Assembly (NCBI RefSeq): GCF_058153355.1
Contig: NZ_CM177019.1
Length of the DNA: 64,000 nucleotides
Reading direction: 5' to 3' (one strand)
Positions 3,182 through 22,105 of this stretch are shown here, in pieces. The position numbers and the translations under genes are program-made. The notes beneath the pieces are model-generated. The model saw only the letters and a program-made list of their open reading frames with translations. It was not told where the DNA came from and made no database searches. Numbering within the stretch: position 1 is the stretch's first letter; each line of letters begins with the position of its first letter.

Positions 3182-3460
<279 letters not shown>

Positions 3461-16791: not shown

Positions 16792-17589
16792 ATGCTGGCA
16801 AAAGATAGGACTAACCTAAAGATTGAAGAAATACGGATGCATAAACATCATGAGATTCACAGGGTTAAGCCTCTTATGCCAGCTTTATGTCGTATCCGTC
16901 AGGGAAAAAAAGTTATCAATTGGGAGACGCATAGTCTAACTGTTGATAATAATCAGATAATATTATTTCCCTGTGGATATGAATTTTATATTGCGAATTA
17001 CCCAGAAGCAGGTCTTTATCTTGCAGAAATGCTTTATTATCCCATTGATCTAATTGAAAAGTTCCAAAATCTTTATGCGATAACCGATCAAATTCGTAAC
17101 ACGACAGGTTTCTGCTTACCTCAGAATCCCGAGTTAATATATTGTTGGGAGCAACTAAAAACATCTGTTTCCCGAGGCTTCTCAACGCAAATTCAGGAAC
17201 ACTTAGCAATGGGCGTTCTACTTTCATTAGGAGCACATCATGTTAATTGTTTACTTTTATCAGATAGTAAACAATCATTAATAAGTCGTTGTTATAACCT
17301 AATGCTATCCGAACCTGGAACAAAATGGACAGCAAACAGGGTAGCGAGATATCTCTACATTTCTGTTTCCACATTGCATCGCCGTCTGGCAAGCGAGGGA
17401 GTAAGTTTTCAAAGTATATTGGACGACGTGAGGTTAAATAATGCGTTGTCTGCTATACAAACGACAGTAAAACCCATCAGCGAGATTGCCAGGGAAAATG
17501 GTTACAAGTGTCCTTCTCGTTTTACTGAAAGGTTCCATAATCGTTTTAAGATAACACCAAGAGAGCTAAGAAAAGCGTCCAGAGAGTAA
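16792..17589 (+). CDS. ybcM: AraC-family transcriptional regulator YbcM
   Basis: 265-aa ORF with C-terminal AraC-type HTH; order matches DLP12 ybcL-ybcM. Confidence 0.8.
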
Positions 17590-17598
17590 AAGTATTTT

Positions 17599-17718
17599 AT
17601 GAAGGAGCAACAGCATCGATTTTTATTTTGGAAAATCAATACGGCATACTCAACCTATTGGAGCCTGAACAATCCGGTGACTTCTGCGCTAATCGGGGAC
17701 GTTTATAAGCACATATAA
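17599..17718 (+). CDS. Candidate small ORF (39 aa, MKEQQHRFLFWKINTAYSTYWSLNNPVTSALIGDVYKHI), possibly ylcH-like
   Basis: Short ORF immediately after ybcM, where DLP12 carries ylcH; no convincing ribosome-binding site. Confidence 0.25.
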   Translation: MKEQQHRFLFWKINTAYSTYWSLNNPVTSALIGDVYKHI

Positions 17719-18042
17719 TTGATACTCTCTTCCTCCATCACAATTTCAGAAATGCACGTGTGATTTTTTGGCATCCGGCGTTTGGACTATGTGGAGTTCA
17801 AGAGTGGGAAAGTTACAAGAGGTTGAGGGGATAATTAAAGGGATGCTTATGACATTAGATATCCGGTTAGGTACGGATATCGTTGTTATTAAATCTAATT
17901 GATACGTTAATTGTTCACTGAGTATTATTAAAAATGGGGCGTTGAAACGCCCCAGAAAATAAAGGGTAATATATAACAGAAGGTTTATATAGTCAGAAGC
18001 AAGATAGCGCTTCTAAGGAAAGTGGCTTGAGGGGGCCACTTA

Positions 18043-18075
18043 TATGTTGGGGAGGCAAAGCCTCCCACAACATAT
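18043..18075 (-). terminator. Perfect inverted repeat (atgttggggaggc / gcctcccacaacat) just downstream of the porin gene
   Basis: 13-bp stem with 4-nt loop directly 3' of the porin stop at 18091. Confidence 0.6.
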
Positions 18076-18090
18076 CTTTGAGTAATCAGA

Positions 18091-19173
18091 TTAGAACTGG
18101 TAAACCAATCCTACAGCAACGATATCATCGGTAGCAACGCCAGATGCTTTCGTGAAATCGCTCTTATCAATCAGGTTGATTTTGTAATCAACAAAAGTGG
18201 ACATATTTTTGTTGAAGTAATAGGTTGCACCTACATCAATATATTCAACCAGGTCCTGATCACCCCACGCACCCAAGTCTTTTCCTTTAGATTGCAGGTA
18301 AGCAACGGACGGACGCAGACCGAAGTCGAACTGATATTGTGCAACTACTTCGAAGTTTTGTGCTTTGTTGGCAATATGGTTATTACCAAAAACAGTCATG
18401 TTCTGGGTTTCAGAATAGGTGGTAGCCAGATAGATGTTGTTCGCATCATATTTCAGACCAGCTGCCCATACTTCAGCATTTTGACCAGATGCATTCAGGC
18501 TGTTGTTACCGTAGATAACCTGATCATTAGTGCGGTCAGATTTAGCATAGGTTGCACCTACACCGAATCCTTCATACTCATAAGTAGTGGAGAAACCGAA
18601 ACCATCACCGTTAGCTTCAGTTACGTCAGTGCGGTCATTTTTACCCTGATACTGAGCAGCAAAGTTCAGACCATCAACCAGACCAAAGAAGTCGTTGTTA
18701 CGATAAGTTGCAACACCTGTGGTGCGACCAGTCATGAACACATCTGTTTGGGTCCAGGTATCGCCACCGAATTCTGGCAGAACGTCGGTCCATGCACCGA
18801 TATCGTATGCTACACCGTAGTTACGGCCATAATCGATGGAGCCGTAGTCACCGAATTTCAGGCCAGCGAAGGCAAGACGGGTTTTATCTTTGGAAGAACC
18901 TTGAGATTCAGCACGGTTGCCTTTGAATTCATATTCCCACTGACCGAAACCAGTCAGTTGATCGTTGATTTGGGTTTCGCCTTTGAAGCCCAGACGAACA
19001 TAAGTTGTGTCGCCATCATCTGCATCGTTAGAAGAGAAGTAGTGCTTAGCATTAACTTTTCCGTACAGATCCAGCTTGTTACTGTCTTTATTGTAAATCT
19101 CTGCTGCCTGAGCAGACATCGCCATCAGTACTGATGCAGCTACAGCAGAAATTGCCACTGTTAATTTTTTCAT
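18091..19173 (-). CDS. nmpC: Intact NmpC/OmpD-type general porin of the OmpC/OmpF family
   Basis: 360-aa ORF with signal peptide ([23 protein letters not shown]) and C-terminal ...VGLVYQF; closest to recalled NmpC; prophage-type cargo on the opposite strand to emrE-ybcM as in DLP12. Confidence 0.8.
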
Positions 19174-19703
19174 CGTGAGCCCTTTTATTTGAACTATTAT
19201 TTAAAAATGATGTCACTGCACCACAAATATTCATCTAATCAATGAGATTATTTCAAGATGTAAGTTTTAGTTTCTCATTTAAATTGTGAAGTAGATCCCT
19301 ATTTTTATCTGAACTGTTTCTATTGCACACAATGCATGACTATTTTGTGAACGAATATAAATTTGGTAGTCAAATTATATTAAAGGTTGTTATTTATGAT
19401 TGACTCATAATTTATTTATTTAATTTAAATAGCCTAAAAATAACCATGGAGATTATTTGCATGATATTTGTTTAGATTTGTTAATGTAGTTGAGGTGATT
19501 TTATTTAATACGCAATATAGCGCCGCTTGATATTAGTTCTATTTTTTTTTTGCGTAAGATAGATGAGACAAACTGAGACGCATAATGGTTTGCAAGGCTC
19601 TAATACTTTGATGTTGAGGATGTGATGGGGCATGTACGTGCATAGTACAATGATGTCCATGCCGGTGTGGATAATCTCCAGGCTTATCCGGTGCGCCGTA
19701 AAA

Positions 19704-20177
19704 CCCCGTCCTTCAGGGCGGGGATATAAGGCGCGGTTTTCCACCTGACCAGGTGTTTGCTGTTGTTCAATGTATTGGCGGATGACGGATATTGGCGCAC
19801 CTCCGCAGCTACTGGCAAAATAGCCGGGACTCCACAAAACGCCTTTGTAGTAATACCTGACTGCAATATCTGGTCGATCTCGTCGCAGTAATCTACCCGA
19901 TACGCCTTTGTGGCTGTTTACCAGACTGGATATCGCCAGTTTGGGAGGATAGTTAATTAACAAATGGACGTGATTCTGGTTCGCCATCCATTTCAACCAG
20001 TTCAGCTTCAAAATCAGCACATACATTTGAAAAGTAAGTGCGTAGTTTTTCTGTCGCGTCATGGTCAAAAATCTGACGTCGGTATCTGGTGACAAAGACC
20101 CGGTGAACATGCATCAGAAAAACACAGTGCCTTCCACGCCGGATATCGGTTTCTTTTTTCACAGACCAAAGTATCAT
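19704..20177 (-). pseudogene. tnpA: IS200/IS605 Y1 (HuH) transposase TnpA, split by a frameshift
   Basis: N-terminal part in ORF 19953..20177 (HCVFLMHVHRVFVTRYRRQIF...ELVEMDGEPE); HuH motif and catalytic-Tyr region in a different frame in ORF 19505..20110 (NHVHLLINYPP...SCGGAPISVIRQYIEQQQ); frame switch near 19965..19985. Confidence 0.7.
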
Positions 20178-20184
20178 TTGGCCT

Positions 20185-21393
20185 GTGAAACGACTACAAG
20201 CATTTAAATTCCAGTTAAGACCAGGTGGTCAACAGGAGCGTGAAATGAGGCGCTTCGCAGGCGCATGTCGTTTCGTTTTCAATCGTGCTCTGGCACGTCA
20301 GAATGAGAATCATGAGGCCGGTAATAAATACATCCCTTACGGGAAAATGGCTTCCTGGCTGGTTGAGTGGAAAAATGCCACTGAAACGCAATGGCTTAAA
20401 GATTCGCCCTCACAGCCATTGCAACAGTCACTGAAAGACCTTGAGCGGGCTTACAAAAACTTCTTCCAGAAGCGGGCTGCTTTTCCCCGATTCAAAAAGC
20501 GGGGACAGAATGATGCATTCCGCTACCCGCAGGGCGTTAAGCTCGATCAGGAAAACAGCCGTATTTTTCTGCCGAAACTGGGCTGGATGCGCTACCGGAA
20601 CAGCCGTCAGGTCACGGGTGTTGTGAAAAATGTCACGGTCAGCCAGTCCTGCGGTAAGTGGTACATCAGTATTCAGACAGAAAGTGAAGTATCCACTCCG
20701 GTTCATCCTTCAGCATCAATGGTCGGGCTGGATGCTGGCGTGGCTAAACTCGCCACGCTGTCAGATGGCACAGTCTTTGAGCCTGTAAACAGTTTTCAGA
20801 AAAACCAGAAGACGCTGGCGAGACTTCAGCGACAGTTAAGCCGCAAGGTCAAATTCAGCAACAACTGGCAGAAGCAGAAACGCAAAATACAGCGACTGCA
20901 TTCCCGTATCGCAAATATCCGCAGGGACTACCTTCACAAAGTCACAACGACCGTCAGCAAAAACCACGCAATGATAGTCATTGAGGATTTGAAGGTCAGC
21001 AACATGTCAAAGTCAGCAGCGGGTACGGTCAGCCAGCCGGGGCGCAATGTCCGGGCAAAATCAGGTTTAAACCGTTCGATACTGGATCAGGGCTGGTATG
21101 AAATGCGCCGCCAGCTTGAGCACAAGCAGCTCTGGAGTGGCGGTCAGGTGCTTGCTGTTCCGCCAGCGTACACAAGCCAGCGTTGCGCGTGCTGTGGTCA
21201 TACAGCGAAAGAAAACCGCCTGTCACAAAGTAAATTCAGATGCCAGGTATGTGGATATACAGCGAACGCCGATGTAAATGGCGCTCGTAACATTTTAGCG
21301 GCGGGGCACGCCGTTCTTGCCTGTGGAGAGATGGTGCAGTCAGGCCGCCCGTTGAAGCAGGAACCCACCGAAATGATTCAGGCGACAGCCTGA
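20185..21393 (+). CDS. tnpB: TnpB (IS605 OrfB), RuvC-like RNA-guided endonuclease; intact; GTG start
   Basis: 402-aa ORF; N-terminus resembles TnpB; C-terminal zinc finger CxxC...CxxC ([37 protein letters not shown]) and RuvC-like segments. Confidence 0.85.
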
Positions 21394-21432
21394 ACGTAGC
21401 AGGGATCCACGTCCTTCAGGGCGTGGAGGATG

Positions 21433-22105
21433 TCAACAAACAGGTTGAATTAACTTCGCGCCCTGGTTTTTGACATTACCCACCGCGCGCGACACAGGGT
21501 GCCAGGTGAACTGGTTTGCTGGAACACAGCCACTGGCAGAAATTTCAGAGGCTTCTTTACCGCTAATCTCTTGCCGCATCCATTCCCGCGCAGCTTCTGG
21601 CGACAGTACCAGCGGGCGGCGGTCATGAATATCTACCAGACCCTGGTCTGCTGCTGCAGTGACAATTAAAAATCCTTCGGCTTCGTCACCACGCTCAAAC
21701 GGTGTGCTACCTATCGCGGCTATAAAAACAGGTTGTCCATCAGCGCGATAGATAAAATAAGGCTGTTTTTTTGTCGCCTTCTTTTTTCCACTCAAACCAG
21801 CCATCGGCAAAACAGATTGCCCGACCATGTTGCCAGAGCGGTTTAAACATACGACTGGTTGCCGCAGTTTCTACGCGGGCGTTAATCAGCGGCGGTTTAT
21901 CCCACCATCCGGGAGCATATCCCCAGAAAACCGGATCCAGATGAAGGTGTTCATCACGTTCACTGAGCAGAAGAACTTTGGTTCCCGGCGCGACGTTGTA
22001 TCTGCCAATGGGTTCGGGATCGTAGGGAATATCGCGTTCAATATCTTCCGCGAGAAGCGCAAGGTAATCTTCACGCGTTTGGGATTGGGCAAAGCGTCCA
22101 CACAT
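21433..22105 (-). pseudogene. yedK: YedK (SRAP/HMCES-family abasic-site processing protein) disrupted by a +1 frameshift in a homopolymer run
   Basis: N-terminal 121-aa ORF (MCGRFAQSQ..., catalytic Cys2) and C-terminal 131-aa ORF overlap in different frames; 7-nt T run at 21766..21772 where the intact reading requires 6. Confidence 0.8.

Follow-up and report, generated by a model that had tools for sequence, protein, structure and literature searches.

Directly behind the gene ybcM, in the 64,000-nt stretch of DNA analyzed here (the window), an unannotated open reading frame (ORF) of 39 codons raises a simple question: is it a small gene, as its neighborhood might suggest, or did the frame open for reasons that have nothing to do with coding? 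The first-pass annotation had seen in it a possible relative of ylcH, a small gene that the prophage DLP12 carries after ybcM, and had added the hedge that it may be a remnant rather than an expressed gene. As set out below, the proposed kinship with ylcH did not survive comparison with K-12, while the hedge did: we consider the ORF to be, very probably, a nonfunctional by-product of decay in a reduced prophage remnant of the phage-82/DLP12 type. The evidence for this reading includes a frame that was opened by decay mutations, the missing Shine–Dalgarno (SD) sequence, and a sequence diversity that looks neutral.

Structure and Initiation Signal of the ORF

The frame itself is present as originally described. 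According to both the sequence and the ORF list, it lies on the plus strand at 17599–17718, with 39 sense codons (MKEQQHRFLFWKINTAYSTYWSLNNPVTSALIGDVYKHI) from the ATG at 17599 to the TAA at 17716–17718. The last intact gene before the fossil DNA is ybcM (16792–17589, plus strand), which the ORF list and the RefSeq annotation of near-identical genomes identify as an AraC-type helix-turn-helix regulator; its TAA is in the frame of the ORF, three codons ahead of the ATG (17587–17607), and the ATG follows 10 nt past this stop. A position directly after ybcM, part of the argument for ylcH, is thus correct for the ORF but not for K-12 ylcH, which lies 117 nt past the ybcM stop.

The claim that the ORF has no convincing SD sequence was confirmed. 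Within the 20 nt upstream of the ATG, there is no ribosome-binding site (RBS) at a functional spacing, and the best anti-SD duplex in this interval, formed by AGAGAG at −18 to −13, is badly spaced and reaches −3.3 kcal/mol. Such a score is equaled or beaten by 30% of all ATGs in the window; the scores of the neighboring genes fliE, ybcL, and ybcM and of the porin gene range from −4.4 to −6.5. A strong SD-like motif, AAGGAG, is located just inside the ORF (17602–17607), and K-12 and phage 82 have the same AAGGAG; no canonical start codon is found at a functional spacing 3′ of it.

Nor does the length of the frame call for an explanation. When the 501-nt gap between ybcM and the porin gene (39% G+C) was shuffled 2,000 times with dinucleotides preserved, at least one ATG-initiated ORF of at least 39 codons appeared in 61% of the shuffles (mean 0.89 per shuffle), and the 64-kb window contains 279 ATG-initiated ORFs of at least this length. 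A log-odds measure of codon usage, derived from 41 of the window's long ORFs, does not discriminate here: it gives the ORF 0.02 bits per codon, between the values of core genes (0.32 ± 0.16) and of spurious ORFs (−0.18 ± 0.22), but ybcM and ybcL, which are real genes of foreign origin, come out no higher. The peptide sequence contains no hydrophobic helix or other recognizable small-protein feature.

Island Context and the Deletion behind ybcM

In the closest complete genomes (99.3% identity), the gene order is fliF, fliE / emrE, ybcL, ybcM / ∼500 nt free of coding sequences (CDSs) / porin / yedK, yedF, yedE, the island (emrE-ybcL-ybcM … porin) being located between fliE and yedK. This version of the island, at ≥95% identity, is carried by ∼2,650 of 5,426 complete Escherichia coli genomes, about half, and among the island-type RefSeq matches listed from this set, the ORF is never covered by an annotated CDS. 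In derivatives of K-12, the only matching DNA is that of DLP12 (∼81–86% identity), in which ybcK, ybcL, and ybcM are followed by a 102-nt “hypothetical protein” (ylcH) and then by ybcN, ninE, ybcO, rusA, ylcG, and quuD. The assignment of the locus to a ybcM–ylcH neighborhood of the DLP12/phage-82 type was well founded, as 17401–17806 aligns to the ybcM-ylcH-ybcN segment of K-12 with ∼86% identity.

The homology to this arrangement ends at the GTG start of ybcN (17804–17806). From there, a deletion scar on the plus strand (17804–17902) fuses the ybcN start in frame to the last ∼30 codons of quuD; the scar peptide is 70% identical to QuuD residues 98–127 (E = 2e-12), and ∼1.8 kb is missing, comprising ybcN, ninE, ybcO, rusA, ylcG, and most of the antiterminator gene quuD. 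The ORF list places the scar within a 44-aa ORF with a TTG start (17768–17902).

Past the quuD remnant, the intergenic region between Q and the porin gene is 87–90% identical to that of phages 434, ev243, and others and of K-12. On the minus strand, 17935–18090 forms the 3′ untranslated region (UTR) of the porin gene with an intrinsic terminator (17954–17935) and shares ∼90% identity with the sequence that follows nmpC in K-12. The porin-inhibiting RNA IpeX is reported to map to this 3′ UTR (Castillo-Keller et al. 2006). IpeX is listed as a regulator of ompC mRNA (PMC3333887). A MicF-like Rfam match at 17928–18009 (minus strand) has a score of 20 bits and an E value of 3.5, far under the gathering score, and Rfam returned nothing relevant in the window. 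The porin gene (18091–19173, minus strand) is of phage type, NmpC/OmpD-like although labeled “porin OmpC” in RefSeq, and forms the right-hand neighbor of the fossil.

Relative to the closest genome, the window carries an insertion of ∼1.75 kb between the porin gene and yedK (19689–21441), with tnpA and tnpB ORFs of the IS200/IS605 type. In JJ1887-like genomes (n = 2), the match to the window breaks off at 17910 and picks up again at ∼19805, inside the IS200/IS605-type element, from which it follows that the porin gene is deleted there and that an annotated tnpA CDS runs into the fossil. In strain W21 (NZ_CP163122), an IS2 inserted at the equivalent of ∼17597 removes ybcM and the start of the ORF.

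Relationship of the ORF to ylcH

In K-12 DLP12, ylcH corresponds to orf33 of phage 82 and encodes an uncharacterized protein of 33 aa (UniProt YLCH_ECOLI). Its RNA is detectable in K-12 and increases twofold under microaerobic growth, with the protein not detected (PMC8910356); the ylcH literature that we found consists of incidental mentions only, with no functional or ribosome-profiling evidence. The idea that the ORF is a diverged orthologue of this gene has gene order on its side, as ylcH follows ybcM in both DLP12 and phage 82, and both ORFs are small. The sequences themselves disagree with it. A BLASTP comparison of the ORF with K-12 YlcH, the check that the first-pass annotation had suggested, gave no alignment at E ≤ 100, a lack of similarity that this annotation had itself named among the results that would speak against a ylcH-like gene, and at the nucleotide level, the ORF aligns to the K-12 spacer between ybcM and ylcH, upstream of ylcH and not at its position; in K-12 and phage 82, moreover, the frame of the ORF is closed.

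The true equivalent of ylcH (orf33) is found at 17705–17807 on the plus strand, in another frame, and it is dead: the ATG has become ATA (17705–17707), codon 6 is a TGA (17720–17722), and one extra base has been gained near 17762–17772. The ORF overlaps this copy by just 14 nt. The core of the dead peptide can still be read (PSQFQKCTCDFL), and it is only here, downstream and out of frame with the ORF, that the conserved YlcH core SQMQKCTC(D/N)FLH is seen; the ORF has no trace of it. Other hallmarks of ylcH are absent from the ORF as well. The start codon of ylcH lies just 3′ of a short hairpin with the RBS, GGGA, in its loop, and this arrangement is not found at the start of the ORF, which instead contains the hairpin (hairpin 2 below) and the RBS within itself (17690–17704). 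The stop of K-12 ylcH overlaps the start of ybcN, while the ORF ends at 17718, 86 nt ahead of the start-codon relic of ybcN at 17804, with no GTGA/ATGA overlap of the ylcH kind. On the evidence of the nucleotide alignment and the frame analysis, a diverged ylcH is refuted as a reading of the ORF, and we assign it next to no probability.

A Decayed Phage-82-Type Leader beneath the ORF

What underlies the ORF can be recognized from the phage 82 record X92588. The record begins with the last codons of ybcM and contains orf33, orf151, orf56, orf96, rus, orf45, and Q, where orf33 equals ylcH and orf151 equals ybcN; between ybcM and orf33, its feature table shows a −35 (TTGATT) and a −10 (CATAAT), both marked putative, followed by an inverted repeat and an RBS, and the inverted repeat, GTCACCGGAG-N9-CTCCGGTGAC, is labeled “possible regulator-binding site.” All of these elements have counterparts on the plus strand of the window, and all are damaged. 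The −35 (17622–17627) reads TTTATT vs. TTGATT in phage 82, K-12, and ∼100 phage copies, and the −10 (17645–17650) reads CATACT vs. the conserved CATAAT. In the inverted repeat, or hairpin 1 (17654–17681), most of the left arm has mutated and the right arm lacks one C, and the predicted minimum free energy (MFE) of the hairpin has risen from −17.1 kcal/mol in phage 82 to −5.2 kcal/mol in the window. A conserved GACTTCTGCGC block is followed by the remains of hairpin 2 (together 17679–17704), with the orf33/ylcH RBS (GGGGA) in the loop and TCGGGG at 17693–17698 as the equivalent of the annotated RBS; the stem pairs AATCG with CGTTT, vs. AAACG/CGTTT in intact copies, and its predicted energy goes from −4.9 to −1.4 kcal/mol. 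Hairpin 3 is refolded in the window and goes from −9.7 to −6.3 kcal/mol. With the start codon of ylcH and the SD of ybcN, both of them also mutated, the damage extends to both hexamers, all three hairpins, and the initiation signals of the genes that followed.

A covariance model (R1) of the leader module that we defined upstream of ninB in lambdoid phages still matches the window at 17638–17798 (plus strand) with 83 bits (E = 2e-20), vs. 133–183 bits in 102 intact copies, and the region is therefore best described as homologous but degraded. Intact copies have a −35 TTGAT(T) and a −10 (C/T)ATAAT at 17-nt spacing, a stable hairpin 1, hairpins 2 and 3, and a ninB-type gene immediately downstream; in the window, both hexamers are altered, the three hairpins are weakened, and ybcN is deleted. 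A promoter and terminator scan found neither inside 17590–17850.

How the Reading Frame Opened

The intact copies tell, almost letter by letter, how the ORF came to be open. In phage 82 and K-12, the corresponding frame reads AAG AAG GAG CAA TTC TAT CGA TTT TGA … GCA TAA and contains no ATG; its in-frame TGA is inside the −35 hexamer and its TAA inside the −10 hexamer. A G-to-T substitution turning TTGATT into TTTATT thus eliminated the TGA, an A-to-C substitution turning CATAAT into CATACT eliminated the TAA, and a 1-nt deletion in an arm of hairpin 1 rephased the frame such that it now stops at 17716–17718. The start codon is supplied by an AAG/ATG difference at a position that is present in ybcM-linked copies only. 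Because TTGAT, CATAAT, and the undeleted hairpin are common to 13 BLAST-derived copies and ∼110 distinct copies from viral contigs, the intact states of the leader are clearly ancestral; given that and the removal of both stops by the substitutions, the ORF is a side effect that arose as this regulatory DNA decayed. Within the island lineage (eight genomes), the two substitutions and the deletion have become fixed.

The history that we propose is short. The prophage remnant has lost the genes from ybcN to quuD by deletion, and its ylcH is inactivated; with ybcN through quuD gone, the leader has nothing left to serve. Left without a purpose, it would have drifted, the hexamer substitutions taking away the TGA and the TAA, the hairpin deletion rephasing the frame, and the AAG/ATG difference providing a start. 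We infer that the resulting frame is not translated into a functional protein and sits in neutrally drifting DNA. Transcription is another matter: the terminator scan found no terminator between ybcM and the ORF, and for this reason, the ORF is probably transcribed, presumably within the untranslated 3′ end of the ybcM mRNA, with low-level translation a slight possibility.

Variation among Island Genomes and Database Searches

A small population sample was formed of the window and seven further island genomes picked to cover the range of identities. In each of these seven, the ORF has its ATG and is intact, which is expected at ∼98% identity. The changes within it are three synonymous and six nonsynonymous ones (W21L, W21C, S22N, S22I, D34V, and Y36S). 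Across the eight genomes, 8 of its 120 sites segregate (π = 0.021), compared with 6 of 417 at the adjacent 3′ end of ybcM (π = 0.0045), such that the ORF is roughly fivefold more diverse than ybcM; segregating sites number 4 of 88 in the rest of the fossil and 5 of 94 in the quuD remnant. The ORF evolves like the surrounding dead DNA and not like a gene. The 3′ end of ybcM (17170–17586) has its own peculiarity, five of the six segregating sites in the eight genomes being nonsynonymous and one synonymous, which, in very small numbers, hints at relaxed selection on ybcM itself.

Pfam, NCBIfam, and PHROGs have no matches for either the ORF or YlcH. The exact peptide is absent from a set of 15 billion predicted proteins, even though two of the sampled genomes encode it identically, and none of 5.8 billion protein clusters shares three 5-residue words with it, the query in this search being the 39-aa peptide plus its two native upstream codons.

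Alternative Explanations

The observations above could be accommodated by a gene too young to have left other traces, that is, by a lineage-specific small protein that arose de novo and is translated from the downstream portion of the ybcM mRNA wherever the fliE–yedK island is carried. The frame has an ATG and is open in eight of the eight island genomes, the island itself is found in about half of the complete E. coli genomes, no terminator separates the ORF from ybcM, and the three frame-opening changes have reached fixation among the island genomes; all of this is in favor of such a protein. The same frame, however, has no SD sequence and the length that chance gives, no gene caller has ever predicted it, and nothing in the peptide resembles a known small-protein feature. 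Its variation also speaks against a gene: at ∼5 times the diversity of ybcM, nonsynonymous changes predominate and hit both codons of the tryptophan region. We regard a de novo protein as most unlikely, and its more specific form, a very young gene born from the neutral decay of promoter hexamers, with weak translation from the end of the ybcM mRNA in the approximately one in two E. coli genomes that have the island, as less likely still. Alternatively, the coding potential may be irrelevant and the DNA may still function as nucleic acid, whether as a residual promoter or operator, as a structure in the 3′ UTR of ybcM that stabilizes or terminates the transcript, or as a small RNA. The covariance model still recognizes the region, with its 83 bits; the conserved block ahead of hairpin 2 and the GGGGA motif persist; and the ylcH region is transcribed in K-12 (PMC8910356). 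Against this stand the mutations in the hexamers, the three hairpins, the start codon, and the SD of ybcN, the lack of anything downstream to regulate, a diversity as high as that of the adjacent dead quuD fragment, and the empty results from Rfam and from the promoter and terminator scan of 17590–17850. A surviving nucleic-acid function thus seems very unlikely, if not quite as unlikely as a new protein.

A by-product of decay, the reading that we prefer, has practical consequences. The ORF is better left without annotation, and the most fitting label for the region is that of a phage-82/DLP12-type prophage remnant with a dead ylcH leader and a ybcN′-′quuD deletion scar. As the stop codons were carried by the hexamers TTGATT and CATAAT themselves, the locus is also a tidy worked example of an open reading frame arising purely through the decay of regulatory DNA.

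The Intact Leader Upstream of ninB and ybcN

More useful than the ORF, we believe, is the by-product of its analysis: the intact ancestral leader, which looks like an undescribed structured RNA. The leader is a block of ∼160–190 nt that precedes ninB/ybcN and is conserved in the lambdoid phages and prophages, more than 100 in number, that infect Escherichia, Klebsiella, and Enterobacter or reside in them; the block spans 45–235 of phage 82 X92588 and 3217–3407 of the extracted K-12 locus, and its dead copy occupies 17620–17807 of the window. A pattern scan matched at least 120 viral contigs, in which the two anchor motifs of the scan are invariant by construction; the BLAST-derived set shows no variation in these motifs either. 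The promoter-like motif of the leader consists of a −35 TTGAT within the palindrome TTGATTTT-N-AAAATCAA and a −10 CATAAT at 17-nt spacing. Hairpin 1 begins 4–5 nt after the −10 and has 7–12 bp (10 bp in the phage-82-type leader); among 51 distinct sequences, its mean MFE is −12.5 kcal/mol (z = −3.3). In an alignment of 88 distinct copies, which was guided by the model and fitted to the structure and so leans toward it, 8 of the 10 pairs of hairpin 1 have changed on both sides with 95.8% of cells paired and G-U pairs frequent, and for the whole structure, 88.6% of cells are paired vs. 34–46% with the partners slid, with covariation scores of 0.248 vs. at most 0.088. The pair count of helix 2 in this alignment, 63.8%, is an understatement, as the MAFFT and covariance-model alignments misregister its stem variants; hairpin 2 was therefore assessed by folding each sequence individually. 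Five versions of its stem exist, each with the pairing preserved (AAACG/CGTTT, TTTAAG/CTTAAA, TTTGAG/CTCAAA, ATATGATT/AATTATAT, and ATTTGAT/ATTAAAT), the GGGA in the loop being the RBS of orf33 and the ATG or GTG start lying in the 3′ arm.

Within the leader, the ylcH frame has been preserved in three diverged lineages by indels that compensate for one another; its stop overlaps the start of ninB, and the SQMQKCTC core is invariant at the nucleotide level and also forms a hairpin of 13 bp. The leader is conserved whatever the cargo upstream of it, be it ybcM, a YajG lipoprotein, a HEPN protein, DNA polymerase III theta, or an alpha/beta hydrolase. What lies between ren (or the replication genes) and the ninB leader varies from one prophage to the next, being emrE-ybcL-ybcM in DLP12 and phage 82, and the interval behaves as an insertion hotspot for morons, with the palindrome of the leader as its right boundary.

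No Rfam family matches the intact copies. An identity with the prophage anti-sRNAs AgvB and AsxR was rejected, as their place is the moron site that follows Q, downstream of PR′ (PMC4104026), and not the DNA upstream of ninB. The possibility that hairpin 1 or 3 is an intrinsic terminator, analogous to tR2, also found no support: neither stem is followed by a U-tract, and the terminator scan finds none. The intact leader may control the nin/Q region in a way not yet described, at the level of either translation or transcription, and the simplest reading of its conserved features would be a structured leader with a coupled mini-ORF that controls the expression of ninB and the nin region.

Comparison with Known Systems

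The closest described relative of the region is the promoter and “regulator-binding site” upstream of orf33 in phage 82, to which the DNA under the ORF is homologous base for base. The two differ in that the elements in the window are all mutated and the genes that they served are deleted; the labels in phage 82 are themselves “putative” and “possible.” At the scale of the island, the counterpart is DLP12 (qsr′), a cryptic lambdoid prophage of K-12, which shares emrE, ybcL, ybcM, the ylcH region, the 3′ end of quuD, the porin 3′ UTR, and an nmpC-type porin gene at 81–90% identity. DLP12, however, is found at another chromosomal site, whereas the island is located between fliE and yedK and lacks ybcK, the genes ybcN-ninE-ybcO-rusA-ylcG, and most of quuD; conversely, nmpC of K-12 carries an IS5, and the porin gene of the island is intact.

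As an open reading frame, finally, the ORF resembles the spurious ORFs of decaying prophage and intergenic DNA: it has the length expected by chance, no SD sequence, and substitutions that look neutral, and it is not conserved beyond near-identical genomes. It is unlike the usual cases of this kind in one respect. As many intact copies of the ancestral leader exist, the mutations that opened its frame can be named exactly.
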